Below are positions 1 to 45,400 of a DNA stretch of 62,854 nt, piece by piece (within the stretch, counting starts at the first letter, position 1; each line of letters opens with the position of its first letter). Origin of the DNA: a virus (lineage: Duplodnaviria; Caudoviricetes). Location of the stretch: positions 1-62,854 of IMG/VR virus record IMGVR_UViG_3300044634_002660; one strand, 5' to 3'. The notes under the pieces were generated by a model. The model had not been told where the DNA came from and made no database searches. It saw only the letters and a list, made by a program, of their open reading frames with translations. The translations under genes and the position numbers were made by a program.

Positions 1-521
1 TTCTTTGTTGTGAATGATGGATCAAACAGTCTAACCCTATTATTTGGCTGGATGGCTAGATTGCCATCATCTCTAACAATCACATGACCACACTTGTGCT
101 GTCCCGGATTTGTGCTGAATCCGGTGTTCAGAATATTATCATCTGGAGAGTGCCAGTCAAGTGTGAAAAGGTATTTACCGTTAACAAATTCTCCGCTTCT
201 TGCAACATAGGTCATTCTCATATTCCTCATTGCATAGAACTCAGTAGCGGTTACATGGGATGAGAATGAGTTCCACAGAACAAGGTCATGAATATCCACC
301 TCAGGAACTCCAGGCTTCATGCAGAAAGCAGAAATTGGCATTCTCCACCAAACACCGCCATCCTCCATTATAAAATGGAACAGAGGACTTCTAGATGGGA
401 TAGAGGTCACTCCAAAGATTACGCAGGGGAAGTACTGATCGTGAGAATCTAATTGATTTCTTAGGTAGTTACCACGAACATAGCATTCAATTGATGGGAT
501 ATTTGCATTTAATTCAGGCAT
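1..521 (-). CDS. Conserved phage hypothetical protein (partial, runs off left edge)
   Basis: Not in ORF track. Manual translation from ATG at 521: MPELNANIPSIECYVRGNYLRNQLDSHDQYFPCVIFGV...GQHKCGHVIVRDDGNLAIQPNNRVRLFDPSFTTK, open to the window edge. The HKCxH and QPNNR motifs resemble a family common in aquatic phages. Confidence 0.75.
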   Translation of the reverse strand, partial: MPELNANIPSIECYVRGNYLRNQLDSHDQYFPCVIFGVTSIPSRSPLFHFIMEDGGVWWRMPISAFCMKPGVPEVDIHDLVLWNSFSSHVTATEFYAMRNMRMTYVARSGEFVNGKYLFTLDWHSPDDNILNTGFSTNPGQHKCGHVIVRDDGNLAIQPNNRVRLFDPSFTTK

Positions 522-795
522 TGTCAAACAGTCTATCAATAGCTTTCCACAAAGTAGGCCATTCGTTGCGATGTTTTTTCATAACATGATGATGATACTT
601 TGGAACAACCCCAGCATCTTTTACCGCTCTCTCAATATCGTTAAATATTGATCTATATCTATCGTTTTCCATCTTGGTAATCGCAGCTTCACTAGAGAAC
701 TTCTCTGCTGCTTTCATCCAAGTTTTAACTTGCTTTTCGTATTCCTGAATGCTTGCTTGCATATCACGGATTGTTGATTCATATTCATTTGACAT
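514..795 (-). CDS. Hypothetical coiled-coil protein
   Basis: The track ORF 514..921 runs through the tRNA. The plausible start is ATG 795 (MSNEYESTIRDMQASIQEYEKQ...). Confidence 0.65.
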   Translation of the reverse strand: MSNEYESTIRDMQASIQEYEKQVKTWMKAAEKFSSEAAITKMENDRYRSIFNDIERAVKDAGVVPKYHHHVMKKHRNEWPTLWKAIDRLFDNA

Positions 796-870
796 GGCTC
801 CCAGAGTAGGGCTTGAACCTACGACACGCGGATTAACAGTCCGCTGCTCTGCCAACTGAGCTATCTGGGA
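795..870 (-). tRNA. tRNA-Asn (GTT) with encoded CCA
   Basis: Minus strand reads TCCCAGATAGCTCAGTTGGCAGAGCAGCGGACTGTTAATCCGCGTGTCGTAGGTTCAAGCCCTACTCTGGGAGCCA, a 76-nt cloverleaf with GTT anticodon and GTTCAA T-loop. Confidence 0.97.
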
Positions 871-880
871 ATATATTGTG

Positions 881-889
881 AGTATATCA
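881..889 (-). promoter_or_regulatory. Extended -10 promoter for tRNA-Asn
   Basis: TGATATACT (TGn-TAnnnT) 10 nt upstream of the tRNA 5' end. Confidence 0.55.
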
Positions 890-894
890 GTTTG

Positions 895-998
895 TTGAGC
901 CGGTAAAAGCCAAACCCCCATGCTTTCACATGAGGGTCAGCCGTAACTATAACGGTCCCAAGGTAGCCTGCACTCGCGCAACAGACACCATAGGTGCC
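895..998 (-). ncRNA. Putative small RNA antisense to 23S rRNA domain IV (H69-H70)
   Basis: Plus strand 938-967 matches the conserved 23S sequence CGGCCGTAACTATAACGGTCCTAAGGTAGC at 28/30. A minus-strand TATAAT lies at 1005-1010. There is a 5' hairpin GGCACC-TAT-GGTGTC and a 3' hairpin ACCCTCATG-TGAAAG-CATGGGGGT followed by TTGGCTTTT. Boundaries are approximate. Confidence 0.7.
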
Positions 999-1004
999 AT
1001 AGTT

Positions 1005-1032
1005 ATTATACACTATCGGCTATTGTTGTAAA
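1005..1032 (-). promoter_or_regulatory. Sigma70-type promoter for the putative antisense RNA
   Basis: TTTACA-16 nt-TATAAT on the minus strand; a start 7 nt downstream falls on the first G of the GGCACC hairpin. Confidence 0.6.
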
Positions 1033-1186
1033 AGCCTCCACCTTTAAGTTGAATACCTGGAGGTGAGAATACTTGTTTAATAGCATCTCCACAAATTGGG
1101 CAACAGATAATCTTTTGATCTTCCGTTATCTTTCTTGTTTCTTCGATTTCATGTCCACTAAGGCATTTGTATTGATAAGTTGGCAT
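1013..1186 (-). CDS. FmdB-family zinc-ribbon protein (57 aa)
   Basis: Not in track. MPTYQYKCLSGHEIE...CCPICGDAIKQVFSPPGIQLKGGGFYNNSR has the characteristic MPxYxYxC..H, CPxCG and KGxGFY motifs. Confidence 0.85.
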   Translation of the reverse strand: MPTYQYKCLSGHEIEETRKITEDQKIICCPICGDAIKQVFSPPGIQLKGGGFYNNSR

Positions 1187-1262
1187 TTAATCCTTCATTC
1201 CTAATAAAACAATGAAGACAACTACTCGGTAATATGCTCTATGGATTTTTCTATAGGTACGC

Positions 1263-1874
1263 TTAATCATTTTGCTCCTGAACAAAAATCTGAAATGGCG
1301 ATCCTGTATACGGATCAAACTTTGATGTGATTGAAAGGGCTTTATTTATAGCCGCTTTTGCTTTTTGGATTGGGAGTTGCTTTCCTCCCGTGATTGCCTG
1401 TATAGCACCAAGAGCATACGAAGAACCACTGCCGATTGCATAAACACCAGTACGGTCAGAAGTCCAAGAGTAGTCCCCATCAATTATATATATTACACCA
1501 TTAACAACCACAACAATTGTAGAGTTATGTTCTGCCATATGATTCTTTGTATCATTATCTGGCATGGCGTATCCATGATTCTCAAAACAATTTCTTAATG
1601 ATGGAATAAATTTTTGTGTAATAAAATGATCTAACTTAGCACCACCTTCCGAAAAAGTCGGTGTTGGAGGAACAAAGACATGGTGAAGTATGTTTATAGC
1701 TCGAACATCTCCAGCAGCTCCTAGGAGATATTTACCATTTTGAGCAATTTTTGCTGTTCCTGTTCCAAGCGTTGTGATTTGGAAAGCCATCCCTTGTTCA
1801 TCAAAAGATGAAACCCGTGAATCAGTACCTACTACAGAATAAGTATCTCCCTGAATAGCAACAATTGTAGTCAT
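1263..1874 (-). CDS. Ntn-hydrolase, proteasome beta/HslV-like threonine protease
   Basis: N-terminal M-TTIV (catalytic Thr1), DSR, downstream K, AIGSGS and D-x-x-T-G near the C-terminus. Confidence 0.8.
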   Translation of the reverse strand: MTTIVAIQGDTYSVVGTDSRVSSFDEQGMAFQITTLGTGTAKIAQNGKYLLGAAGDVRAINILHHVFVPPTPTFSEGGAKLDHFITQKFIPSLRNCFENHGYAMPDNDTKNHMAEHNSTIVVVVNGVIYIIDGDYSWTSDRTGVYAIGSGSSYALGAIQAITGGKQLPIQKAKAAINKALSITSKFDPYTGSPFQIFVQEQND

Positions 1875-1891
1875 ACAAATATCCTACACTA

Positions 1892-2491
1892 TTATTTGGT
1901 AGTATTTGCACTCATTGGTAGCAAAAATGTCTGATTTATCCACATGATGCTCAAAACCGAGTAGCCAATGACATCTAACAAATTATCTTTAATAGATTCA
2001 TTTTCTGGATTAAGATTGTTATTAACTAAATTCTCAAGTCTTCCAATTTTATCGTGCATTCTTATAATTAAACCATTAAGTCCAAATCTTGAAATATTAG
2101 ATGGGCCATAATCTTTTTGTTTTTTAATTACAGTTTTATTTACAACATCTCGATATTCATCAAGACTAAACTTCAAGTCTATTTCTTTTGATGCAAGGAT
2201 GGAAAAACTTGATAATGCTACCCAATACTGAGTAATTGTTTTAGCTAATTCATAATCATATTCAACATCATCAAATTTCCATATTTTTTTATCAATCATA
2301 TCGTCAAGAGTTAAGATCATGTTCATTAAATGATTTTTATCAAAATTAAGATTTCCAAATGTTAAAGAGAAACCTTCTGAATATCTTCTATCAAGTTCTA
2401 ATATATCTTCAAATAAAGAATTAACAGTGATAGTGCATGATTGCTCCCAACTACCACAGATTTTTGCATCTTTAATTTTATCCAAAAGCAT
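1892..2491 (-). CDS. DUF1599 / nucleotide-modification-associated domain protein
   Basis: C-terminal KKQKDYG...RMHDKIGRLENL...ESIKDNLLDVIGY is typical of this MazG-like family. Confidence 0.7.
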   Translation of the reverse strand: MLLDKIKDAKICGSWEQSCTITVNSLFEDILELDRRYSEGFSLTFGNLNFDKNHLMNMILTLDDMIDKKIWKFDDVEYDYELAKTITQYWVALSSFSILASKEIDLKFSLDEYRDVVNKTVIKKQKDYGPSNISRFGLNGLIIRMHDKIGRLENLVNNNLNPENESIKDNLLDVIGYSVLSIMWINQTFLLPMSANTTK

Positions 2492-2913
2492 TACTTAGAA
2501 GCTTTTCTTTCTTTTTCTGGATCAATGATTTCAAACATTCCTCTTTCAATTTTTTTGAAATAAGAACGATTATCTCTATGAAAATTATAAACAGTAGGAA
2601 CAGAGATGTTTAGCTCTTCGGCAACTTTAGCAAAATTTATGGTCTTGCCAGTATTTGTTTTTAAGTAATTTTCAATAAGTTTTGTCTTAGATGTTCTCTT
2701 CGATGAATTTCCTGTTTTACCAGTTGTGAAAGAGAAATAAGACATCCATTTTTCAACCGCTTCTTTTGAAACAGCGTAGTAAGAAGAAATCTCAGAAATG
2801 GACTTTCCATCTGCAAACCCAGTGATTACAGAGTAAGCAATCCTTCTTTCTTCTGCATCAATGGATGATGGGATTTTTGTAATATAGTTATCAATTTCAG
2901 CTCTAGTTAGCAT
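2491..2913 (-). CDS. Helix-turn-helix DNA-binding protein
   Basis: Two HTH-like segments (GKSISEISSYYAVSKEAVEKW; INFAKVAEELNISVPTVYNF). Confidence 0.6.
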   Translation of the reverse strand: MLTRAEIDNYITKIPSSIDAEERRIAYSVITGFADGKSISEISSYYAVSKEAVEKWMSYFSFTTGKTGNSSKRTSKTKLIENYLKTNTGKTINFAKVAEELNISVPTVYNFHRDNRSYFKKIERGMFEIIDPEKERKASK

Positions 2914-2977
2914 ATTGGACCTTTCTATTGTCGGAATTGAATCATATCAGGAATTTTCACAAATAATGCACAATTTT

Positions 2978-3050
2978 AAAAAAAGATAAAGATATAGCGC
3001 CTTAGTTCACGATCATAATCTTTCGAAATACAACCGCCCAAGGCGCTATA
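2978..3050 (-). terminator. Long stem-loop followed by U-tract (terminator or structured RNA)
   Basis: Perfect inverted repeat TATAGCGCCTT (2993-3003) / AAGGCGCTATA (3040-3050). The inner stem extends through G-U pairs on the minus strand and is followed by TCTTTATCTTTTTTT. Confidence 0.6.
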
Positions 3051-3058
3051 CCAGATTT

Positions 3059-3250
3059 CTATTTTTTCAAATGCCAATCAATATGATTGTCTAATTTTTC
3101 TCCAACGCTACGAACATCGTCATGAAGGTTCTGAAGAGAGTTATAAACCGTATTGTGGTCATCTTTATTCTCTTTACGAGCCTTCTGTATTAAAGCAACA
3201 AGAACAGAGAAAACCCCTGTTATTATTACTCCAATAATTCCAATATCCAT
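3059..3250 (-). CDS. Small membrane protein (N-terminal TM plus coiled coil)
   Basis: Hydrophobic N-terminus, ends LDNHIDWH; overlaps the upstream stop. Confidence 0.6.
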   Translation of the reverse strand: MDIGIIGVIITGVFSVLVALIQKARKENKDDHNTVYNSLQNLHDDVRSVGEKLDNHIDWHLKK

Positions 3251-3630
3251 CAGTCATTCAACAGGAATTTAGCGATTGCTTCAACTTCCATGTCGAAATC
3301 GCCATACTGAGCTGCATGCTCTTCAAGAATTGCAATCAAGTCTGACTTCTTAACCTCTGGGTCAAGAGCGATCTCTTTTGTAGGGGAGGTCTTTCCTGCA
3401 CCAGATGTTGGTGTGTCTGCAGAACCGGCTGTTGGGATTGATGTAACCTTTTTTTCCGGGTCAAGAGGAACTTCGTTCATCATTGACTTCATAATGTCAG
3501 CTTGCGAGTTATGCCAAGCAGCTGCTTTGATATGATCTTGCATTGATTCAGCAGCTGATTTAGCCATCTCCTCATGCCAAGACTTCATTGAATCATGATC
3601 TTGAATCATTTTATCAATATTGTATTTCAT
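3250..3630 (-). CDS. Hypothetical protein
   Basis: 126-aa ORF with an AGGAG RBS, in tight operon context. Confidence 0.65.
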   Translation of the reverse strand: MKYNIDKMIQDHDSMKSWHEEMAKSAAESMQDHIKAAAWHNSQADIMKSMMNEVPLDPEKKVTSIPTAGSADTPTSGAGKTSPTKEIALDPEVKKSDLIAILEEHAAQYGDFDMEVEAIAKFLLND

Positions 3631-3631
3631 T

Positions 3632-4609
3632 TTATTTCTCCTTATTAAGTAATAAATCTCTAATCATAGAGATAAGAGATGACATTGAATTCTCTTCTTC
3701 GTCATCCTCTTCTTCTTCGTCTTCCATTTCTGGAGACACTAGACCGTCTGGAATTACAGCAAATCTGCACTTCCCTTCGTCTTCTACTTGTTGAGCGATA
3801 ATTTTACAAATACCATCACCCTCGTATAGAACACAATTTCCACATTTAACACCGATGCTTTTTACTTCGTTTTCTTCTGGGCTATCATAACCAGCCCAAA
3901 TACCAGTTTCATCTTCGTTAAACTTACCATAATTTGATGCAATTGTTACCAAAGCATCTGCAAGTGCAGCCTCTTCTTCTGCAAGATCTTCTGCAACCTT
4001 TTCCACATTCTCTTTTGTCACTCTGTAACCTCCACCCCTTCTTTTATATTCACGGACAAGCCATGCGTTTGCGTATGCAGAAGGGTATACATCAAACTTT
4101 GCTTTTGCCTCAGATTTAATCCTGGCATAGAGTTCTGGATTTGTTGGCACATTTGCCTTCTCCATATCCTCTTTATCTGTTGAAACATTGATTGGTTTTT
4201 TACCATCTCTTGTTTCAGTTGTCTCCGCTCTTCTCTTTCGTCTTACAGCAGATTCAATCTGTTCAGGTGTCATTCTTGCTGCTCTTGATGCAGGAACACA
4301 CTTTGGGTACTTACCACTGCTTGCATCACTTCTTCCGCAAGGTTCAAAACCACCACCGGGTTTTGGTCTGGAGATATCAACCCATCTCTCCTTAAACCAT
4401 TCTTTAAGAGATTTTACTGCCTCTTCAACAATTGGCTCAGTAGATTCGTTTTTGTTTTCATACTCGCCAGTAGCAATACCCTGAACAGTTGCTTTCCTTT
4501 TTGCTTCACCCATTGATTCAGCATTTCCTCGCTCATAGATATAGCATTTACCGCTATCTCCCCATTTAAAACCGGGTTGACCGTTATTTGAGCATGGATT
4601 TACAGGCAT
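3632..4609 (-). CDS. Multi-module phage protein (DUF5872-like modules plus Cys cluster)
   Basis: Modules GFKWGDSGKCY; SLKEWFKERWVDI..CGR..YPKCVP; PTNPELYARIKSEAKAKFDVYPSAYANAWLVREYKRRGG; CGNCVLY..C..C. These resemble small modules in other large phages. Confidence 0.6.
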   Translation of the reverse strand: MPVNPCSNNGQPGFKWGDSGKCYIYERGNAESMGEAKRKATVQGIATGEYENKNESTEPIVEEAVKSLKEWFKERWVDISRPKPGGGFEPCGRSDASSGKYPKCVPASRAARMTPEQIESAVRRKRRAETTETRDGKKPINVSTDKEDMEKANVPTNPELYARIKSEAKAKFDVYPSAYANAWLVREYKRRGGGYRVTKENVEKVAEDLAEEEAALADALVTIASNYGKFNEDETGIWAGYDSPEENEVKSIGVKCGNCVLYEGDGICKIIAQQVEDEGKCRFAVIPDGLVSPEMEDEEEEDDEEENSMSSLISMIRDLLLNKEK

Positions 4610-4631
4610 AGTAGAACCATTTTACCATGAT

Positions 4632-4967
4632 TCACTTGTAATAGCTGTATAATTCTTCCCTATTCCATCTCTGAACAGGTATTGAAAGAGAATTGAATTC
4701 TGCATAGGCCTGTTCCGTTGAGTAAACAATTCTAGCGTATGCTTTTCTAGCACCCTCGTCATAAACAGGACAGTCGGGATTGGGATCTAGGTACAAAGCC
4801 TTGTATTGATACATGTCTTCTTCCCAATGAATTGCATTAACCACTTTTAACTTTTGGTAACAGTATGGGCACTCTTTATCTGGATAGGGGAAATTTGGAA
4901 GAACACGACCCATTATCAATCCGGGTATGTCTAAACTGTTCAATCCGGGGATGTTTATATTATTCAT
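4632..4967 (-). CDS. Hypothetical protein
   Basis: 111-aa ORF with CPYC, overlapping the adjacent gene. Confidence 0.6.
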   Translation of the reverse strand: MNNINIPGLNSLDIPGLIMGRVLPNFPYPDKECPYCYQKLKVVNAIHWEEDMYQYKALYLDPNPDCPVYDEGARKAYARIVYSTEQAYAEFNSLSIPVQRWNREELYSYYK

Positions 4968-5202
4968 CTATTTTTGACCTCAGTAGGAAATCAATAATAT
5001 CATCAATATTTTTTCTTGCAATATCGATGCCATCCATTAAGCAAGAAAGCTCTTCAATATTCATTACATAATCATCAGATGGACTTGATATATAAAAAAC
5101 TGGGGCAAATGTATCTTCAAAAGGAACGGTTTTTATTGTTATCTCAAGAGTTTCAAAATCACCGATATCTTCATTGCCAGAATATGGGACTATTCTCGTC
5201 AT
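4960..5202 (-). CDS. Hypothetical protein
   Basis: 80-aa ORF in the tightly packed minus-strand operon. Confidence 0.55.
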   Translation of the reverse strand: MTRIVPYSGNEDIGDFETLEITIKTVPFEDTFAPVFYISSPSDDYVMNIEELSCLMDGIDIARKNIDDIIDFLLRSKIDE

Positions 5203-5581
5203 AATCTACCCCTTCCTCAGTAATTGTTATAACATTATAGTTTAAAACAACTAATTGCTGTGCCAAAACAGTCAACATCTTTGTTTCTTTAGTTATTTTT
5301 GAACCAAAAAAAACAACAACAATGTAATCTTCTTTTTTAATTTTATTAAATAATAAAAAGTTTTTATCTTTAAGAATCTTTGCTCTTTTATTTCCAGAAA
5401 ACGACATATAAACTTTAAGGAAACCAGATGTAGTTGCTGGAGAAACATACACATCAACAATTGACTCTGACAGCTCTTTGCAGAAATCTTTTATGTGCTT
5501 ATGCGGATACCCAGTATCTGATAGGGCTAATACTTTTTTATCTTTAAGATAGGATTTAAAATCAATTTGATTTTGATGCAT
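5171..5581 (-). CDS. Hypothetical protein
   Basis: 136-aa ORF in operon context. Confidence 0.55.
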   Translation of the reverse strand: MHQNQIDFKSYLKDKKVLALSDTGYPHKHIKDFCKELSESIVDVYVSPATTSGFLKVYMSFSGNKRAKILKDKNFLLFNKIKKEDYIVVVFFGSKITKETKMLTVLAQQLVVLNYNVITITEEGVDYDENSPIFWQ

Positions 5582-5723
5582 ATAACGCTGCCGTTATGTT
5601 TAATGCAACAACGATTATTGCTGGTCCAACAAAACCAGGGTCAAAATTCCATCCATACTGAACTCCAAGATTAAGCAAAAGAGTGTTTAGAGAAATCCAA
5701 AAAATAAATAATAAAAATGTCAT
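5562..5723 (-). CDS. Small two-TM membrane protein (53 aa)
   Basis: Not in track. MTFLLFIFWISLNTLLLNLGVQYGWNFDPGFVGPAIIVVALNITAALYASKSN; ATGA overlap with the thyX stop. Confidence 0.55.
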   Translation of the reverse strand: MTFLLFIFWISLNTLLLNLGVQYGWNFDPGFVGPAIIVVALNITAALYASKSN

Positions 5724-6415
5724 ATTGCTACTCTATCAGATTTTACAAAAGATTCATGGGTGATTGGCATTTTCTTCATAAAAATATATTCAATTGCTTT
5801 TGCATATTCATTAATCTCATATTGTGCATTGTTATCGTTACGCAACGAAATAAAATTAATAAGACTCCTTGCATTAACAGTCCAAATAAACTCTGTGTAT
5901 TGAGTTACTGGCAATACACATCGAGCAATCTCTTTTGCTACACCAGCTTCAATAAGTTTATAGTAAGCAGAGTCGGCCTCTAGAATTGACTTTTGGAATA
6001 CAGAATAGAATAAATCTTTAACTTCTGGATCTTCAATTTCCTCAAAAGAATAAGCTCCGGGCTTACCTATCTGCTTTCTAATATTTTTATACGAAGGGGT
6101 ATAGTAATCAATCTGCTCTGGCTGATAGTATCTCATACTCATCTCATTAAAAGATGACCAGCGATGACGCATCCACTCCCTTGCAACAAAAATGGGAGCC
6201 TTTATGCGGAATTTAAAAACGGAATGTTCAAAAGGAGTCGCATGTTTGTTTTTCATAAGATAATTGATCAATCCAACGCCTGATTCATCAATTTCATTTT
6301 TACTGGCTGCGAAGGAAACTTTGGCAGCGTTTATGACATCAAGATCTGAAGCCATGCAGTCTAAAAGTTCTACAAAGCCGAAGTCCAAGATTTCATGAAA
6401 GTGTTCATTACTCAT
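5720..6415 (-). CDS. thyX: Flavin-dependent thymidylate synthase
   Basis: HATPFEH, signature RHRWSSFNEMSMRY, AKEIARCVLP, NARSLINFISLR, AQYEI. Confidence 0.96.
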   Translation of the reverse strand: MSNEHFHEILDFGFVELLDCMASDLDVINAAKVSFAASKNEIDESGVGLINYLMKNKHATPFEHSVFKFRIKAPIFVAREWMRHRWSSFNEMSMRYYQPEQIDYYTPSYKNIRKQIGKPGAYSFEEIEDPEVKDLFYSVFQKSILEADSAYYKLIEAGVAKEIARCVLPVTQYTEFIWTVNARSLINFISLRNDNNAQYEINEYAKAIEYIFMKKMPITHESFVKSDRVAI

Positions 6416-33452: not shown

Positions 33453-36400
33453 ATGGCTGAAAGAAATGGTAGAGTAGAGATAACTGCTGAGATTGATCAA
33501 CGACTTCAATCTGCCCTATCTCAAATGTCTTCTAGTCTTCGCAGTACTATTGAAGTAACAAACGCTGTAAATAGATCAACAGACTTGACAAAATCGACAA
33601 TGCGCGGTTTGAGTCAGGCTCTTTCCGTAACAAGCGGCTCTACTAATGAATATAATAGATCTGTAACTGAAGCTGTTAAGAATCAAGCAATCTTAGCAAG
33701 TCACTTTGGCAAAACAAAAGAAGCCATAGCCAGCCTTAATAAAATCATGGCCAACAGCCGGGGGACTAATGTAACTTCTCAGGATATTGCTGTTCAAAGA
33801 GCTTTCATTAATCAGTTGCAGTCTCAACTGGGTATTCAAAAAGAATTACAGAAGTATTCAAATACTCAATCTTTAATGGCACAAAGCAATGCCTTAAACT
33901 CTTTGGCTACAAAGTACTCTTATGCTGGAAACCGCTTGTCAATGGGGTTGACACTTCCCTTAGTCGGTTTCTTTAGAACAGCATTCTCCAACTATAGAAG
34001 ACTAGAAATAGAAACTGTTCGCACAACAAAACTTCTGGGTGACTCTTATACCGATGCTGGCGCTCAGGTAAAAACTCTTGGAAAAGAACTTGATGCTATA
34101 TCTCTCAAGTATGGTGTTGCTAGAGATCTTGTTCAGGGGCTTGCTGGCGACTATGCTGAATTGGGAATTACAGATATCAAGGCTCTTTCTGGATTAACAG
34201 ATTTAACAGCAGCAACTGAAAAACTTGGTAATGTTGATATCACTGAGGCTTCAAACTTCATCAAGTCTATTTATCAAACAGTTAATCGTGTTAAAAGAGA
34301 TGAGGCTGCAAGGGCTGGTCGTGCAATTAGCTTCAAAGATCCAGCAGAGGAGGCTCTCTTCTATGCTGATTCTATTGCTCAAGTTCGTGGTCAGTTGGCG
34401 ATGTTCAACCTTTTGGAAAACAAAACCTCTTTGGCACTTCAAGACATTGCGAAAGCATTCCCTGAATTAACAGCAGCATCAACCTCTTTTGGTCTTTCAA
34501 TGACTGAAGCATCAGCTCTTATTATTCCGATGGTTGCTTCTGGTTTCCAAGTAGGTGCTTCAGCAAACTCTGTGAAAGTTTCTTTGCAGAGATTAGTTGC
34601 TATGACAAAGAAGAACCAAGAAGCAATTAAAGAACTCAAATTAACTCAAGCAGATTTCAACTTTGAGGCTGGAGTTGGCATTGAAACAATTCAAAAACTA
34701 TCTGATGGTTATGAAAGTTTGAAAAGGACAAGAGGTGATGAAGGAGCGTTGAGATTCTTCTCCGATCTTTTCGGTGTTCGTCAGGGTCCAAGAATGGAAG
34801 TCGCCCTCCAGAACCTGAGTCAGTTCCAAAGTCAAATCAGCAAAGCTGGAACTATTGAAGATCAGTTAACAACGCAATTAGAAAACTATGTAAGACAAAG
34901 AGCCGGACAAGCTGGCTTGGGTGAAAAATATAGCAAAATGGAATTGACAAAATATTCTGACTTGTCAAAAGTTATTCGTCTTTCTCAGAATGCGGATAAA
35001 GAAGTTGCTTCTGCATTCACATCAGCAAGAGCAGACTTTGGTAATTATCTTGTTTCAGAAAGCAAGAGAGGACAAGACCTTCTCGGCAAGGTGACAACAG
35101 AAACTGGTAGAGCATTATTTGCTGCTGCTTCAGGTGGTGGCAAAGGTTCTCAAGCAGAGGCTACATTTAACTTAGAACTTGAGAAAGCCTTGGATACGGC
35201 TGACAGAAGATACAAAACATCAAGAGAATCCATCAAAGCGCTTGGTCGTGAAATGGTTCCTGTATTTGACTCAATCTTAAAAGTGGTTGTTCCATTATTA
35301 GAAAAATTTGCAAAATTTGTTGGAGGTATTCCATCTGGCTTTAAAGCATTCTTGACAATTGGCGGTCTAGTTCTAGCAATGCTTGGACCAATAATGAAGA
35401 TTCGTGGTGCATTTGCACAACTTCATTCAAGCGTTCTCTCTTTCAAAGCATCAGGGGGGATATTTAAAAATCTTAAATCATCAATTCATCCAATCTCTGC
35501 AGAACTTCTTGCGTCTTCTGATGCATTTTTGAGATTTAAAAATAAATTAACTCAGGTTGGAAATCAATTCTTTTTCAAGGGAACAATTAAAGAGTTAAAG
35601 CAAATGGAGAAATTGATTGCTGCTCAATCTTCAGGTAGAACAAGAGTATCAGATCGTCTTGAGAAAAAGTTGAAATTAAAAGAAACAGCAGATTATTCAG
35701 GTTTATATGAAGAAACATCAAACCAACTTAAAAATGTATTTGATGAATCTCTTGATGGATACTTAAAACCATATAGCGGAATTAAGCCAGATATTACTGG
35801 AACAATTATTGATGGTAGAGTCGTTGGCTTAGAAATGGGTAATGCTTTTGTTTCTGTTTTAACAAGTTTAGGTTTTGATCCTAGAGCCTTTACAAGAGTA
35901 GCGTCTACTGCTGGATCAGCAACGACTACAACTACTCCTGCTGGAGATGTTGTTGTTGTTCCACCAAACATAAAGAGAACGGGTAGCAGGACACCTCCTC
36001 CCGATGATGACGGTCCAGATGGACCTCCATCTGGTGGTAGTCCAGCAGGTGGTAGTCCAACAGGGGGCGCTCCAGCAGGTGGTGGTGCTGCACAAAGAGG
36101 GCCGAGAGTTCGTAATGCAATGTCTGGTCTTGAACAGGTTTGGGGCGCATTGCAGGGAACAATGGATTTTGTTAATAGTGCAACAAAGTCTCAACTTCAA
36201 GATTTTGCTAAATCATTAAATATTACAAAAGTTTCCGGATTTACTGTAAAGAGTCCTAAGTTGAAAGTTGCACAACTTAGAAGAGCAATCATTGAAGCCA
36301 TATCTGCTCCTAGTCAGGTTATTGCTAAGGCTGCTGAGGAAATTCAAACTACTGTTGAGCAAGTTAAAGAGACTGTTAACAACAACGCACCTCCAGCAAA

Positions 36401-39400
36401 AGATACATCAAAAACAAAGAAAGCCTCTGCAAAAGCGACGGAAAATGTTGCTGAAGCGCAGGCTGATGTTGATACAACTGCTGTTGTCGAGCAGGGTAAA
36501 GAAGATGAAAAGACAGCAAAAGAAACAAAACCAAAAACTGGTAGAAAACCTACAGTAAAGAAAAAATCAGAAGAAGCAGTCGATAATACTGCTGAAGCGC
36601 AATCTACTGCAGATGCTGCCACTGTTGTTGAACAAGGCAAAGAAGACAAAAAGGTTGTTGAACAGACAAAGCCAAAAACTGGTAGAAAAGCTCCAGTAAA
36701 GAAGGCTTCTGATAAAGCAGTAGACAATGTTGCTGCTGAACAAGCAAAAGCTGATGCAAAGGCGGCTGAGCAGCAGGGCAAGGCTGATGCCGCAGTAGTT
36801 CGTTCTGGTCCAAGAACAATTAAAGCAAGACTTAAAAGAAAGCCATTCCTTAAAGTTGATAAGAATCTTGAAGGAACTATTGGAGCCTTTAGTCATTTAA
36901 CTTCAACAATTAATGAAATGGTTGCCAACGCACAGCAAGTTAAAAAAGTTTCTGTTGAAGAAGCAATTGCAAAATTAAATTTAGGTATTAAAGGTTCTAA
37001 AAAACTTCGTTTTACTCCTAAAGACTTTACTCGTCTTGCTGAATTGATGGGTGTAATCCTTCCTCAAGCTTTTTATGAAATTCAAGAGTTTACAAATAAA
37101 GCCGGGAAGCCACTACAGATTCAGGCAGATAGTCTTCAAAATATAATTAATGCTATTGCAAAAATTGTTCCAGCATCTGAATCCCTTCCAGAGCTCGCTG
37201 GTAAAAAAGTTTTAAAAATTGAACAAGATTTGAATAGAGCATTTATTGCTCTTGAAAAACAAGGTGGAACAAAAGCTTTTAATATTGGTAATATTGTTGG
37301 AACATTGCGTCATACATTGAATGAAGCAATAAACATGATGATTCCAAAAGAAAACTTAAAAGAAGGTGTCGTTGTTCCATTAGAGGAGTTAACTTACAGT
37401 GACCTTGGAACTGGTGGAAGAAGAAGTCGTGGTCGAAAAGTAAAAGCAAAACCACTTGACTATGATAGTTATGTAGATTCTGCAATACAATTTACAAAAA
37501 CTTCTACAGGTACAGAATTTTGGCGGAAATTAAGAAAAAATTTACAACTTAGAACAGGTAAATCACTGTTTGAAAAGTCGATGACCGAAGAATCATTGAA
37601 TCAATCATATGGTCCAGCAACTGGTGAAGTAACTGAAGGAAATGTAAGAGTTGCAAGAGCATTATCTTTTGGCAGAGCAAAGAGTAGAGGTGCGAGAGCG
37701 CTATTCAGAAGAGAAATAGACTTTGCTAGTTCATTAGATAAACTTACAGAAGAAGCATACAATGCTCATCGTGCAAAAATTGAAAAAGGAATTGCCGATG
37801 CAAGAGCTCGTATGGAAGTTATTAAAAAAATGTTTAGTGCGGGTATGGACACTGACCCGGATAAAACAAAATTATTTTCTATAGATGAATTAAAAGCTGC
37901 ATTAGCGGATTTTGAAAGAGAAATGCGCGAGGCTAATCTTAATGAGGATATTAACGAAGTAATTGAAAAACTTAAAGGTCAATCGGAAATTATTTCTAAA
38001 AATAGAAATAGACCAGGCAAACTTGTGTCTGGTGAAGATGCTATTTTTGATATTTCAAAGAGGTTAGATGAAAACCTCGCAAAAGCTGAAGCATCTTTAA
38101 AGGCAGAGTGGGGAGATGCCGCCCCAGAGGGAGCAAGAAAATCAGCAATTAGAGCGGCCTTTAGGCAAACAGCAAGCGATTTGCAATATGCTTACATGGA
38201 GCAATTAGCATTATTCCAAAAGCAAGTCACCAAAGAAACTCCAGAAGTTGCAAGAAATCTTGCTATTGCAGATGAGAATGTTGAAATTGCAAGAGGCAAA
38301 CTTAAAGATGTAAAAGGTCTTAAGGTTGGCTCTGAAGAAGGAAAGGAATATTTCAAAGGTCGTAAAAAAGCTGATGTTGTTAAGGGTCTTGAGAAAGAAT
38401 TAAGTTTATTAGAAGAACAAAGACATGCAATTAAACTTCAACATGATGAATTAGTTAGAAGAAATCAGGCTGAGCAAGAAAATATTAGGAATCTTGAAAA
38501 AGTAAGAGATGCACAACTTGCTATTCTACAATCAAGAAGGGTCGATATTGGTCTTCAGCCAATTACAATATCTGGTCCAGCAATCGAAGATACTTCTCCA
38601 TCAAGCAGCGAAAGAGCAGAGGCTTATTGGAAATCAAGATCAGAGTCCATGTCGAAAGCTCTCAACCAAGAAGATGCAGACAAAAGAGCTCCTGATGCAA
38701 TTTCCACAACGGTAGTTAATGCTATTACTCAAGTTTCTCAAGAGATTCTTGATGCAGAGCAAGTCGTAAAGGCAGCAAGAGAAAGATTAGATGAACTTAT
38801 TGGTCTTAGAACAGATATTTCAATGTCTGAACCGGGAAAGCCTTTTGCTGAAAAAGCACAAGCAAGAGTTAAAGAAGCTGTTAAAAATCTTAAAGTTAAA
38901 GCCGCTAATATTGATAAAGAAATCGTTAAACAAGAAAAAACTCTTGAAGAAGCAAAGACTGAATTAGCAAAAGTTAGTGAAAGAAGTCGTGCTGGTGGTG
39001 GAGGTCGAACTGGTTCTGTAAACCTCGGAATGCCAATGGCCGGTGGTTTTGGTGATCCAATGTCAACAGACCTTTCTCCAAGAGGAGGAAGAAGATCTCC
39101 TCTTGACATGATGACACCAAGAAACATCATGAGCATGATTCCTTCCGGTGGAGATTTAACTCCTGACCTTAGCGGTGTTATTGAAACTCTGTTTAAACAA
39201 ATTTCTCAAGCTATCGGAGCACCTGCTGAGGTTATGGCGGGGGTTCTTAAAGATATTGATGACAGAGCAAAGAGAGTTTCAACAATTGTAAATACTTCTC
39301 TTGATCAATTTGATAATGAACTTGTTAATAAACTTATTACTCAAATTCAAGGCCTTCTCGGAGATAGTGAATTAACTGTTGAAAATATTTATAATGCAAT

Positions 39401-42400
39401 TCTTGGTGCAAGAAACCAAATTTATGGAATGGTTCCAAAAGAGATTAAAGGTAATGTAATAAGTGGTAAAGCAACTGCTGAGCAAGTTACTGGTCTTGTT
39501 GAGGCTTTAAATCTTTACAATGTTTCAAAAGAAGAACTTCTTAAACTTGATGCAAGAACATTGAGAAAGATTGCTGAAAAGATGAAACTTGAAGGTAGAG
39601 CAAAGGCAAGTGAAGATGTTCTTGCCGGTCTTATCCATAATGCAATATTTAATCTTGATAAAGAAACAATTAAGGCAATTGATCTTGTTGCTCTTATGCC
39701 TGTTGTTGAAGCAGGAGCAACTGTCAAGACTGCTGGCAAAACTGTTCCAAAACCAGCTGCTCAGAAGAAAGTTAAAGAAGCGGTTATTAAACTTGAGGAT
39801 ACTGTTGAGGAAGTGATTGTGACAACTGAGCAGGTCATTGAGACAACGGCAAAAACAGTTGATGCTGTATTCGTCAAAATACAGAAGTCTATTCCAGTCG
39901 CTGTTCGCGTTGGGCAATCCGTCTTAGACCGTAGGGCTACAGGAATCGGAAGCGGTTGGAAGGCATCTGACGATCCAGTTTCTCCACCAATTGCTCCGAA
40001 CTTACCACGCACTCCGGGGCCATTCCCTCCACCAAGATTTGGCTACGGAGGAACAGATTCTCAAGATAAATTCCTTCTTAGCCTTGTTAAAATCATAGAT
40101 GCTTCTGTTTCTGCTGGTAAAGCAGTTGGTTCTCTATACCTGTCGGTCATGAGGGCTGGAACAATGATGCTTCCATTTGGCAAGACTGTATGGAACATTG
40201 GTTCAGGATTCGTTTCCTTAACACAAAGCGCAATTGCTCTTTATAAGAGCTCTAAGGAGGCTGGAACGGGTCTTCAGGGCGTTGGGAAGACTCTTAAAGA
40301 GATTGCGAAAGCAAAGATATTTGGTGGAACATATACAAATGCACAAGGTAAGCAAGTCGAATCAGCTGGTGTTCTTGGTCGATTGAGCGGAACTGCTGGT
40401 TCGATAAAGCAAGCATTCTCTGGTGCAGCAGGTAGTGGTATTCAAGGTCTCATCAATACGGCAACAATGGGTATGGGGCAATTTGGATTTGTTGCTGGCA
40501 ATGTTCTTCAGAACCTGACTTCTGCACTCCAAACAATCCCGTATGTTGGAGGTCCAGTAGTTGGCATTCTTGGTGCAATTGCTGGCTCAATTTATCTTCT
40601 CATTAAGTCATCAACCATTTGGAAAGGAACAAACGAAGAAGCCTTTAAAAACTTTAAAGATGCTTGGCAAAATATTAAAGACATCTTGTCTGCAATCGCA
40701 GGCCCGTTTGAAGACTTCATCGGAACGCTTCTTGGAGCTCCAGAGGCTGGTGCAAACGCAACTGATTCGGCAAAAAGCAAGCTCCTTGCATTCTCAAATT
40801 TCATTCTCAACCTTTCTAATAGAATTGAATCTTTTGTAAAAGACTACATTGTTCCAGCAATTAGAAGATCACTAGAAATTGTTGTTTATATATTTAATGC
40901 AATTAAACCATTTGCCTCAGCAACTGTTGGATTGGTTGTTGCAATCTTTAATCAGATAACAAATAGACAAGCAAATATGGTTAAAAAAGCAGGAGATCTT
41001 TTCAAGCAAGGAACTCAAGAAGCAAGCGCTGGAAACTTTAGAATGGTTGATAATGCAATCAGAAATGTTAAAAGTGTTGAAGATGCTTGGGCAACATTTA
41101 AAAATTCTTTTAAAAATGTTTGGGAAGCAATTACTAATATTGTTCAATATTATTTATCAATAATTTATCTTAGAGCATATATGTTCTTAAATCTTGCAAT
41201 GGCAGAGATTCTTCAATCATTGGTTAGTCTTTTCTTTGAAGCCGGTCAGCAAATGGGTGAGGCTATTCAGAATGGTATGTTTTCAAAAATCAAAGGACCA
41301 CTTAAAGTTCTTAGCTATCTTAGCCCAGTAGCTAGAGGATTAGGCCCTCTAGGCTCCCTTATAGGGATGGCAAGTAGTGGTGCTCAAGGAGTATCCAATA
41401 ATTTCTTTGATAAGACACAAACAGATATCACAAGTAAGTTTAATAAGATGATTAAAGCCATTGAAAGCAGCGGTCAAGGTAAAGCAGCTTTTGATAAACT
41501 TCTTAATTCCTTAATGCCAAAAGGCGCTGGAAGTGGACTGTTCAAGTCGTTTAGAGATTTACTTACTAAAGTATTTAAAGACCCAACTGCTGCAAATGCT
41601 GCTGCTGACAATTTCAAGGATGCTGTAAATAGTGCTTTATCAAACCTTAAGCAAACCTTCTTTAATGCCGCATTAAGCGGTTTAAGCGATGCTGTTTCAA
41701 AAATCAAGAGTGAAGTCTCCGATATTCTTGAGACTCAAAAAGAAGAGTACCTTAAGGCTTATGATGATCAAATTGCTGCTATTGACGCAATGGTTGAGGC
41801 TGAGCAAAGACTTACCGCAACAGAAGAATATGAAGCTGACAAGAGACAGAGAATCAAGGATAGAGAACTTCAAAGACAGAACTATCAGAAGAATCGTACT
41901 TTGGCAATCTATGAGGGAAGAATTGATGATGCACGACAACTTGACCTTGAAGAGCAAAAAAACATTTCAGATTTCAATAAAGAAAATGCCGATGCAGAAA
42001 CTGCAAGGAATAGAGATCTTCAAGGTAACGCAAGAGCAGATGCAAAAGCAGTTATTGAAAAGCAAAGGTTGGAGGCTTCTAAATTATTTGATCAGGCAAT
42101 TAAGGATTTCAACGAGTATGTCGAAACTGTCGGTAAGAATGGAACATTAACAGAAGCTCAATTAACAGAGCAATGGAAAAAAATCTCTGAAGAAGCAGAA
42201 AAAACCTCAAAGGGATTGTATGACACATTCAAAACTTCATTTGAAGCTCTTCCGGGAGCAATATCCGCTGTTACCAATTCTGCTGGTGGTCTATTTAACA
42301 TTCCATACGACAAATTAATTGAAGAAACAAAGAAGCAATTTGGTATTGGAAATGAAAATGCAGACTCAATACTTGGCTTAACAAGATCGATGCTCACAGG

Positions 42401-45400
42401 TCAGGGTTCTGCAATATCCAGTGCTTTCGACACAAGTGGTCCAATTACAAAATCTTATTCTGAAGGTCTTGAGAAGTTAAAGACTTATATTGCAACTAAA
42501 AATTCTGGAGAGGGAGAGGATAGCCTTAAGGGCATCTTCAAGAAGATTATTGCTGACGCTAACGAAGCAGCAAGGCAAGAAGTTCTCAAGGGGCAGACTG
42601 GTATTGGAAGTGCATTTGACCAGTTGGTTGGGAAAATGGATGCATCTCTTAGAAAGCTTGCGATAAAGGATATTGTCGCAGCTCAACTTAAAGAAGCGAT
42701 TGATCTTGTTAATAATACGACAATCCCTGCTCCTCGAATTCAAAACAGAACCGATGCAAGTGGTAATAGTGGATTTGGCGCTGGTGGACAGAGAGTGCCA
42801 GCAGGCAGTAATCAACCAACTCCCGGATTTGATCCTAGGTCAGTGTTTGGTCTTACAAGTGGTCAAGACACTACATCACAGGGTCAGTGGTGGTCAAGAT
42901 TTAGACTGAATAACAAATCTCCTTGGAATGCTTGGAATAAATTTGCAGCAGACAAACTTCCTATGTATCAGAACTTCCAGTTAAAGAATCCACAAAGATG
43001 GGAACTTAAGTTCCTTCCAAAGTCGATTGCTGTTGATCCTAATACAGTTATTGGTGGCACAAACTTCGGCCCAGTTCGTTTTAATGGTGGAGCTATCCCG
43101 TATGGAAATGGTGGTCCAACAGAAGGTCCAATGCATCAAGGCATCCCCGCAATCCTTCATGGCGGTGAGTATGTTGTTCGGAAGTCTGCTGTTGATAAGT
43201 ATGGCACCGGAATGCTTCAAAAAATCAACCAAGGAACATTTGGGAAGAAAGGCGGTTTCTTTACTGGTGGAAGAGTTCGTGGAAGCAGCTTGGATGTTCC
43301 TGGTCTTAATATGGGAACAGATCCTAAATTTAATACAACAAGAGATGTAATTCGTAAACAATATACTAGTTTTTATGAAGGACTAGAGAAATTGGCCCCT
43401 AGTAGAGATAGAGCTCTTTATGAATGGCAAGTTTCAATGGGTGGTCTTAATTACAATTATATGAGAGAGATTTGGAGAAAAGAATCAAAAGATTGGGCTA
43501 ATAAAGGTGAATACGCTGGTGGTGGTCTTGGGATTGAATATGACAACTGGAAAAAATGGGGAGGTTTGGAATTCTCAGATTTCCCATATAATGCAAATCC
43601 ATATCAACAAATGGCTGTTTATAACAGAATGTTTGCTCTTGGTTATAAAGGAAAATATGGCGTAAAAGAAAAAGCCTTTAGTGCGGCTCAAAGAATTAAA
43701 GATACTTATGGTGGTAAATTGGCTGCTTTCCATTTTGGTTCAAAACAACTTTATGACAATGATGCATTTGTAAATAAAAATACTCCATCAAATAAAGATA
43801 AAACAAACAACTCTATTATTGTTTCTGAAAAGGATGGCATTGGGTACACACCAACAGGTAGTGCCGGATTCCGCAACTTCATTCCAATCTCTAGATTGAG
43901 AGATAGAAGAGGTAAAAGATTTGTAGACGCAAGATCTTCTTCCTACAAGCCATTCTCTTTGTTTAATGGTGGTTCAATGCCTCAATTCAAAAAGGGAGGC
44001 CCAGTCCGTTTAAGTTGTGGTATTTGTGGAAAAGGGTTTGCAAACGGAGGTCTGTTAAGAGCTCATCAACACACAGGTCATTTCAATGGTGGTTTGCTAC
44101 CAAGTTATAAAGTTGGTGGAACTGTAAAACCTGCTGCAGTAACTTTAGATGAATCGATTTATGGTCCAGAGCCAACAATTGATGAAAAAATGATTAAATA
44201 CATTTCTTGGTATAATAAAGACACAACGCCATATGATGCTCTATTCGATGTAAGACTAGGCGTTTCTGAGAGAACCGATCTTGGTCTTGTTAAAGGTATG
44301 GGAGATATTGGAACTTTAAGTAAATTCTATGAGAATGAAAAATATCCAAAAGGAACTATTGGTATTGGAAATATTTCCGATAAGAAAAATAAATACAATC
44401 GTGCAATCCTTACTTTAAAGAAAAACGCTCCTAAAAATGCAATTGATTATTTTAAAAAACTTATTTATTCTGAAATACAACGAGCAAAGAAAGTTCAAAA
44501 ATATCAAGAATACTATTTATCACAAGAAGAGAAATTTGCTTCTGATTATGCGCCATCTCCAAGTAAAGCTTTTGTAAACATACGAGGATTTGACTTCCAA
44601 CCTTATGAATATGACTGGCAAACAACAAGTATTGAGATGATGGCGAATCAACTTAAACAAGGAAACCTTAATAAAATTAAACCATTGAAAGCTTTTTATC
44701 AAAATTGGGATTCTAGTAAAGTTAAAAAGATTATTGGTATTGATCCTATAAAAGAAGGGTTCTATACAGCAATGAATTCCGTCTCCAAAGTAATAGGATT
44801 TGATGATTTTTCTATTGCTGATTCAAAAAATGCATTTCAAGATGCTAGAAAATATTTTAATAATAATAAAAATGTATTGGCTTTAAATGCACAGCCTTTT
44901 CCTCCTGGAGAACTTCCTGAAGGAAGTACTATAGGAGGAAGAGCTTCTGTATTCATGCCAGAAAAAATTGGAGGATCATCGTCTATATCAGCAATAGATT
45001 ATAATCCTAAAGTACTTGATTACTACCTAGATCACTATAAGAGAGGGGATATTGATAAATCTACTCTCAAGATACAACAACATATGAAACCTGATGCTTG
45101 GAAGAGAATATTTCTTCATGAATTTGGTCATTCTATTAATCTAGGTCACCTTGATGAAGGCTACAGGTCATACAGAAGCGGAGAAGAATTACCAAAAGGC
45201 TTTAGTTCACCATTTGATAGAAATGAATCCATTATGTCTTATGCATATGTAAATCAAGATGATACCCCCGCAAGATTTGGTATTGGAGACATTGCATATA
45301 TTCAAAGACTGCAAGATATTATTTTTAAAGGTAAAAAGCCAAAAACCCCAAAGGCAACGGTTCCATCAACAACGACAACTACTCCATCAAGACCTACTAC

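Follow-up and report, generated by a model that had tools for sequence, protein, structure and literature searches.

Trans-acting small RNAs (sRNAs) that work by base pairing, of which RybB and OmrA are the type, and the loop-presenting antisense RNAs CopA/CopT and RNA I/RNA II, which control plasmid replication through a messenger RNA (mRNA) or a primer, are among the described systems closest to the element analysed here, a predicted RNA gene of a tailed phage that is antisense to 23S ribosomal RNA (rRNA). The element lies at positions 998-905, on the minus strand, of IMG/VR virus record IMGVR_UViG_3300044634_002660 (Duplodnaviria; Caudoviricetes), all 62,854 bases of which were analysed and are called the window. 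Its complement in 23S comprises helix 69 (H69), which forms bridge B2a and joins the two ribosomal subunits, and the start of helix 70 (H70). In archaea and eukaryotes, C/D and H/ACA guide RNAs likewise carry 10-20 nucleotides (nt) complementary to functional regions of rRNA; to our knowledge, no such guides exist in bacteria or phages. A Haloferax fragment of valine transfer RNA (tRNA) resembles the present element as a small RNA acting directly on a ribosomal subunit and differs from it in being host-derived and in binding the 30S decoding site, according to the accessible part of the report (PMC11009984). In Helicobacter pylori, a cis-antisense RNA pairs with the 23S-5S precursor and, in the portion of the report available, the duplex is described as processed by RNase III (PMC6582327). 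H69 itself has been targeted with a synthetic peptide nucleic acid (PNA), which blocks translation and the growth of Escherichia coli (Kulik et al. 2017 Biochimie, as summarized in part of a review, PMC12828698). Our searches of the full-text literature, outside supplements and subscription journals, turned up no description of a phage RNA with complementarity to 23S or H69; the original prediction likewise knew of no described phage system like this one.

Trans-acting sRNAs, including a phage sRNA described in a preprint (bioRxiv 10.1101/2024.10.31.621285), resemble the element in having a promoter of their own, a stretch for pairing that is conserved and, at the end, a hairpin terminator and U tail. 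In the element both signals are encoded on one strand, and the seed varies almost always in ways that keep the pairing, through few events. The element differs from these sRNAs in that the target would be the functional core of 23S rather than an mRNA, in a complement of 16-30 nt or more compared with their 7-12, and in the recurrence of one seed on unrelated scaffolds in unrelated phages. As in CopA/CopT and RNA I/RNA II, an unpaired stretch could dock on a target loop and then extend, except that here the loop would belong to rRNA and the kissing contact is one that we infer. The H. pylori RNA is similar in pairing with a 23S transcript, in a duplex that is a substrate of RNase III; as far as the available part of that report goes, it is a host RNA, encoded in cis, directed at the precursor leader and serving maturation (PMC6582327), whereas the RNA described here would be viral, encoded in trans and complementary to H69 of the mature sequence. 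The PNA has the same target and shows that an antisense oligomer directed at H69 can block translation and growth; it is man-made, short and built on a non-natural backbone and, as reviewed in the part available to us, is silent on the invasion of H69 by a natural RNA (PMC12828698). Guide RNAs are set apart by architecture, as the element has neither C/D boxes nor an ACA box and hinge, and Rfam scores are far below threshold. The best C/D model, TtnuCD16, scored 12 bits against a gathering score of 75, the 94 nt contain no RUGAUGA and the single CUGA is not kept in relatives. The best H/ACA model, SNORA84, scored 13.5 bits against 45, and the complementarity runs continuously across U1911, U1915 and U1917 instead of being two-part.

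The resemblance to rRNA is extensive. Compared with Salmonella LT2 23S (L010), renumbered to E. coli positions, window 938-967 is identical to 23S 1905-1934, that is, H69 and the start of H70, at 28 of 30 positions. It continues with 968-973 (CTGCAC), which matches 1962-1967 at 6/6, and 976-981, which matches 1973-1978 at 5/6, and all three blocks are as originally claimed. The match stops at 1905 and at 1934 and omits 1935-61, so that helix 71 is skipped. When the whole window was searched against Salmonella 16S and 23S, the H69 stretch was the sole outlier (E = 9e-7); the remaining 16 of 17 matches were exact 12-14-mers with E of at least 0.88, which is chance level. The rRNA-like stretch is therefore confirmed as real and above chance. 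A fourth block, CCGGTAAA at 900-907, had been put forward as a weaker addition: its match to 23S 1894-1901 is real (8/8), in a register one base off that first given, and we rejected it as part of the element because it falls within the terminator tail or past it and the closest relative does not have it. A blastn search of a phage collection of 50,697 records returned 27 records, 20 of which hold 23S rRNA sequence and match window 940-967 at 27/28 (some of these are bacterial contigs or rRNA records inside the phage collection), and seven of which are genuine Vibrio phage records that match at 23/24, at a site without annotation.

The signals for transcription are on the minus strand. A consensus scan located a sigma-70-type promoter at 1005-1032, composed of a -35 element TTTACA (1032-1027), a 16-nt spacer and a -10 element TATAAT (1010-1005), with 11 of 12 consensus positions; the minus-strand TATAAT promoter of the original prediction is thereby borne out. 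An extended -10 reading of TGTATAAT was discarded, as there is no TG at the right spacing and a good -35 was found instead. The same scan located an intrinsic terminator at 905-938, in which an 11-pair stem (938-913) is followed by UUUGGCUUUU. With the 5' end set by promoter spacing and the 3' end by the U-run of the terminator, the predicted small RNA is about 94 nt long (998-905). Two hairpins had been claimed for it; the 3' hairpin stands, as the terminator, and the supposed 5' hairpin is rather the 5' arm, GGCACCUAUGGUGUCUG (982-998), of a longer fold. Because promoter and terminator lie on the minus strand and are kept there in relatives (21/21 members of the family described below), the RNA would be antisense to 23S, the orientation first proposed. 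In addition, 10 of 41 loci with the window-type core contain tRNA genes, 20 in total, and every one is on the strand of the RNA. These features support the identification of window 998-905 as a small non-coding RNA gene antisense to H69/H70.

In a duplex with 23S 1905-1934, the 30-nt complement of the minus-strand RNA (938-967) would form 28 Watson-Crick pairs, a G-U pair at 1926 and a U-G pair at 1906. It contains the 16-nt core CUUGGGACCGUUAUAG (947-962), complementary to 23S 1914-1929 and common to all scaffold families, and CGUUAUAGUUAC (943-954), complementary to the apical loop of H69 with its closing pair (1910-1921). The adjoining UUGCGC-GA-GUGCAG (968-981) has two 6-nt blocks complementary to 23S 1973-78 and 1962-67. 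From the alignment, the three substitutions a939, c959 and c979 all become G-U or U-G pairs in the minus-strand RNA:23S duplex, and a939, which places an A at 1906, breaks the H69 closing pair in a sense reading; both points had been made before and both hold.

Complementarity to 23S 1914-1929 is conserved and wobble-tolerant. We drew two samples of loci independently of the core, 80 IMG/VR loci fetched through the neighbouring HslV-like gene and 80 by way of a phrog_3704-like gene that is repeatedly present close to such elements; some contigs occur in both. The phrog_3704 set has 35 core matches on the gene strand and none on the other when at most one of the 16 positions is non-pairing. Across both sets, within a Hamming distance of 3 from the perfect complement, there are 61 matches on the gene strand and 4 on the other, the latter all being one coding sequence with transversions. 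Among the 61 gene-strand matches, the core is the perfect complement in 14 loci and has A>G opposite U1926, the change that includes the window type, in 23. One locus combines this change with C>U opposite G1922, one has A>G opposite U1917 and one has C>U opposite G1929; in 15 loci the core has a 1-nt bulge and two wobbles, and in 6 it has U>C opposite A1928, a true mismatch, and two wobbles. Overall, the core varies at four transition sites that keep a wobble pair, at one mismatch site and by one type of 1-nt bulge, with no transversion in these 61 matches, and the base opposite U1915 is always A. In the flanks, wobble-type sites face 1906, 1910, 1930, 1931, 1933 and 1939, to which the window adds U1976. 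Because the same DNA changes break sense-strand pairs, this pattern supports both the strand and the pairing to a 23S-like sequence; we estimate by hand p ~0.02 (about 9 wobble-type sites versus 1-2 mismatch sites, transitions only).

Judged by sequence, the predicted window RNA is a member of a broad class of phage RNAs in which many unrelated scaffolds carry the same 16-nt complement of 23S 1914-1929. The window-type 16-mer was found in 37 IMG/VR contigs, where its flanks represent six or more unrelated contexts, and the exact complement of 23S 1914-1929 in at least 120. We examined 80 of these exact-complement contigs, which hold 59 distinct elements; none of the 80 loci has 23S-like flanks, and none is an rRNA gene. 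A single element lies inside an open reading frame (ORF) of more than 200 amino acids (aa), and most are predicted RNA genes about 60 nt long that would begin with the seed and continue into a terminator. Of 61 distinct elements, 37 have a terminator-like site after the core on the antisense strand and 2 have one on the sense strand; in the perfect-seed set, the nearest downstream ORF runs in the same direction in 67 cases and in the opposite one in 6. When 17 loci of other scaffold types were compared with Rfam, only tRNAs emerged, and these other scaffold families have no shared neighbour gene. The complete or near-complete genomes of the cultured Vibrio phages PWH3a-P1, qdvp001 and vB_VpaM_R16F contain exactly one copy each; that of PWH3a-P1, a phage of Vibrio natriegens, is at ~80.8-81.0 kb of NC_020863.1. 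Some members (L001, L002 and L006, which are Vibrio phages, L014, L015, L028 and relatives) have a second motif, (G/U)CGCUACC, on the RNA strand. This motif complements 23S ~1929-1935 and lies downstream of the core, so that the order is permuted relative to 23S; in the Vibrio phages it is in a hairpin loop.

Relatives that share the scaffold of the window form family A, with 20 distinct relatives and the window itself (21 sequences of 92-111 nt). All have one layout, in the order -10 element, GACAC/GGCAC start, antisense stretch, terminator hairpin and U-run. The -10 is TATAAT in 19 of 21 members and is placed exactly 6 nt before the conserved start, and the terminator hairpin is one of two types, with compensatory changes at pairs 67-90, 72-85 and 75-82. 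Promoter, terminator and antisense stretch are thus kept in related phages, with substitutions that are almost all of the wobble type, which the original prediction had named as support. The anti-1962-78 segment is kept in 18 of 21 members. In the other three (L139:3297-3392, L141:4477-4570 and L142:3221-3331) a GGCGC...GUGCC hairpin takes its place, and a second copy, CCGUUAUA/CCGCUAUA, just before the core makes a tandem complement of the H69 loop. In the sample anchored on the HslV-like gene, the element is at the same place in 30 of the 34 closest loci, and three of the four without it (L117, L123 and L140) are contigs that end just past the anchor gene. A metagenome scan with a family-specific junction 16-mer kept 80 loci, of which 5 are the element and 75 chance matches, among the matches listed. 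Five of the metagenome contigs (L302, L317, L322, L327 and L348) carry a ~120-nt repeat with long inverted arms (…CAACGCCGTAGGTGTTGCGC…), which contains the scan 16-mer by chance and is unrelated to the RNA element.

Structure prediction points to the same site in 23S. RNAduplex, run against the whole of 23S, placed the best site in the H69 region, spanning 1870-1995 with a 27-nt loop-out of 1935-61, at -100.4 kcal/mol compared with -76.5 +/- 3.3 for 40 shuffles. In single-sequence and alignment folds of family A, the 5' arm pairs with the anti-1962-78 and anti-1930-34 segments and a short C-rich stretch pairs with the GGG of the core, with the terminator at the 3' end; in the window, the C-rich part of the 5' arm is predicted to mask the 5' half of the antisense stretch in this way. 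AUAGUU(AC), the complement of the H69 loop, is predicted to be unpaired across family A (mean probability at least 0.9), which makes AUAGUU a likely docking site on that loop. The C-rich:GGG helix occurs as CCC/GGG, CCUC/GAGG, CCUC/GGGG, CCCAAG/CUUGGG and CCUA/UGGG, and one of its positions, among 11 sequences, is U-A in 6, U-G in 2 and C-G in 2. A possible reason for the G opposite U1926 is that it makes a G-C pair inside the RNA. The masking helix is a model for family A alone: a 6-nt partner for the CUURGG half was present within 60 nt in 25 of 51 elements compared with 25.5 for shuffled flanks, in a test without power. Pairing of the 968-981 blocks with 23S 1962-67 and 1973-78 belongs to the best RNAduplex solution; it is possible, and ambiguous because the blocks also pair internally and because L139, L141 and L142 replace them.

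Variation at 1926 had also been considered as a marker of the host, an idea that the data do not support. The window-type 16-mer has 69 matches in 596 Gb of bacterial and archaeal genomes, and the context is 23S-like in just 2 of them (L093 and L105); the other 67 look coding by flank inspection. In a sample of an actinobacterial phylum, 86 of 301 genomes match a 27-nt 23S pattern, and every listed match has T at 1926, a result that is independent of G090, one of the 86, which is flagged unpublished. The C1926-type sequence is not a 23S lineage feature. L093, a contig of an Omnitrophota metagenome-assembled genome, is 23S-like at ~3373-3388, with C at 1926, and departs from 23S right after 1929; an intron or an intervening sequence may interrupt its H69/H70 junction.

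We favour, as reasonably probable, a mechanism in which the RNA pairs with H69/H70 of nascent 23S or of the free 50S subunit, and so prevents bridge B2a from forming or domain IV from folding. The unpaired AUAGUUAC would dock on the exposed H69 loop of new 23S or free 50S, and pairing would then extend along the 3' strand of H69 and on into H70, displacing both the H69 stem and the masking helix of the RNA itself. H69 would be unable to form bridge B2a, or domain IV unable to fold, and the affected subunit would be excluded from 70S ribosomes or marked for decay. Mature ribosomes carry m3-pseudouridine at 1915, which is added on the 70S ribosome by RlmH and cannot pair, so that unmodified or assembling subunits would be the likelier target. 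That many tailed-phage lineages use antisense RNAs against the host ribosome, limiting new ribosomes or feeding rRNA into nucleotide salvage, seems to us evenly poised. Several observations weigh against the proposed pairing and its importance. In mature 50S, H69 is a closed and modified 5-bp stem, and its invasion may be slow. Intramolecular pairing is predicted for the 5' half of the core, and in folds of 51 elements with 60 nt on either side the core was no more accessible than its flanks (0.41 unpaired for both). Independent substitution events are few, and tRNA orientation in the perfect-seed set is mixed (15 same strand, 9 opposite). Nor is the element essential, as the 46 more distant of the 80 HslV-anchored loci have none within 2.5 kb, and the 12-nt core pattern is missing from Sham and Faust, cultured phages of Streptomyces whose capsids are the nearest.

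The same pairing could serve other purposes, and from sequence the shut-off, shielding and guiding roles suggested at the outset cannot be told apart. If the purpose were destruction of rRNA, RNase III or some other nuclease would cleave the duplex formed with nascent or free 23S, ribosome decay would start, synthesis of new 50S would stop and ribonucleotides would be freed for phage DNA. The contiguous duplex of the family, at 30 bp, is long enough for RNase III, and the window phage encodes ribonucleotide reductase; the commonest family, however, has only a 16-nt seed, which is short for this enzyme. A precedent is the H. pylori duplex of antisense RNA and 23S precursor, an RNase III substrate in the part of the report available (PMC6582327). 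We nevertheless regard this purpose as unlikely: the element has no linked nuclease gene, each rRNA molecule would use up one RNA and nothing separates the proposal from simple blocking. It is quite doubtful that the RNA shields H69/H70 from a host nuclease or toxin, or guides a phage protein, for example a Zn-ribbon protein, to 50S. Toxins that cut 23S in H70 do exist (MazF-mt6 type), and a 57-aa Zn-ribbon ORF (PF09723, FmdB-like; 1013-1186, minus strand) lies directly upstream, with its 3' end inside the -35 of the RNA, and adjoins the element in 15 element-carrying loci. Its product may be an RNA-binding partner, yet relatives L141 and L142 have no Zn-ribbon ORF beside the element, the other scaffold families have no neighbour gene in common, C/D and H/ACA guide features are absent, and an RNA covering H69 would itself stop 70S formation.

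A target other than 23S, or a role for the other strand, fits less of the evidence. Trans-acting sRNAs have this layout of promoter, seed and U-tailed terminator, and the window-type 16-mer does occur in bacterial coding sequences, where it encodes YNGPK; an ordinary sRNA could therefore regulate host or phage mRNAs through this seed, with the 23S match incidental. This strikes us as highly improbable, as the coding matches (67 of 69) are fewer than the ~277 that we calculate for 596 Gb under uniform chance and are scattered over unrelated taxa. Moreover, the same 16 nt in Vibrio phages and in very different uncultured phages call for a universal target, and in the window family the match reaches 30 nt. 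On the plus strand the locus reads as 23S sense, and the core overlaps the I-CeuI recognition sequence in 23S rDNA, so that an H69 mimic or decoy, a captured rRNA fragment or a DNA site for a homing endonuclease or recombination come to mind; we find these scarcely credible. A sense hairpin (1906-1910:1920-1924) lacks the 5' strand of its stem, or has it broken, in most relatives and has A at 1906 in the window; promoter and terminator lie on the other strand, and the substitutions break sense pairs and keep antisense pairing. Genuine 23S sequence is present in one phage record, Pd_22F, and looks different; the absence of 23S-like flanks from the 80 exact-complement loci, the omission of 1935-61 from the window match and the conservation across many scaffolds all make a relic unlikely. 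Endonuclease genes are not found beside the element with any consistency. The 23S stretch of Paenibacillus phage Pd_22F (L003; MZ092003.1, ~82.9-83.4 kb) is several hundred bases long, has a serine recombinase gene as its neighbour and may reflect either capture of a fragment or chimeric assembly.

If pairing with H69/H70 is borne out, the element would represent the first natural RNA to act in trans against the functional core of bacterial rRNA, along with a new target class for natural antisense RNA, and it would place an RNA-based phage action on ribosomes beside the known protein-based takeover of the host. As H69 is universal and a proven synthetic antisense target, the docking stretch, masked extension and wobbles could guide the design of antisense antibacterials, and the same features could guide tools that stall 50S assembly. 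The class is accessible in the three cultured Vibrio phages named above.

The gene occupies a 142-nt gap in a minus-strand arm, between the Zn-ribbon ORF and tRNA-Asn (GTT; 795-870, minus strand), which is a same-strand neighbour, 34 nt beyond the terminator, and not part of the RNA; in the window, tRNA alone reaches the gathering score of Rfam 15. A search of sequencing runs with window 1-6000 listed no RNA run that contains the phage, and contigs of four runs aligned to the window gave depth only at 801-1000 and 3601-3800, which is foreign tRNA/rRNA and low-complexity sequence and is uninformative on expression. Upstream of the RNA gene, on the same arm, are an HslV/proteasome-like peptidase (PF00227, phrog_1040) and a DUF1599 protein (1263-1874 and 1892-2491, both minus strand), the former conserved across 125 IMG/VR stretches. 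At 3-539 (minus strand) lies a gene of phrog_3704 (label 'ferredoxin'), whose product of ~210-260 aa is highly conserved and has no Pfam match. Similar genes are found 1-3 kb from anti-H69 elements of several unrelated scaffolds (L005, L009, L016, L021, L023, L029, L033 and L041) and may be a mere marker of the tRNA region or may be linked to the element. The completeness of the virus contig is estimated at about 60%; besides ribonucleotide reductase, it encodes a portal, a protease and a major capsid protein ~49% identical to Streptomyces phage capsids. Its structural arm includes a single ORF of 5,068 aa at 33453-48659 (plus strand), which other notes accompanying the original prediction label a tape measure with cargo domains.

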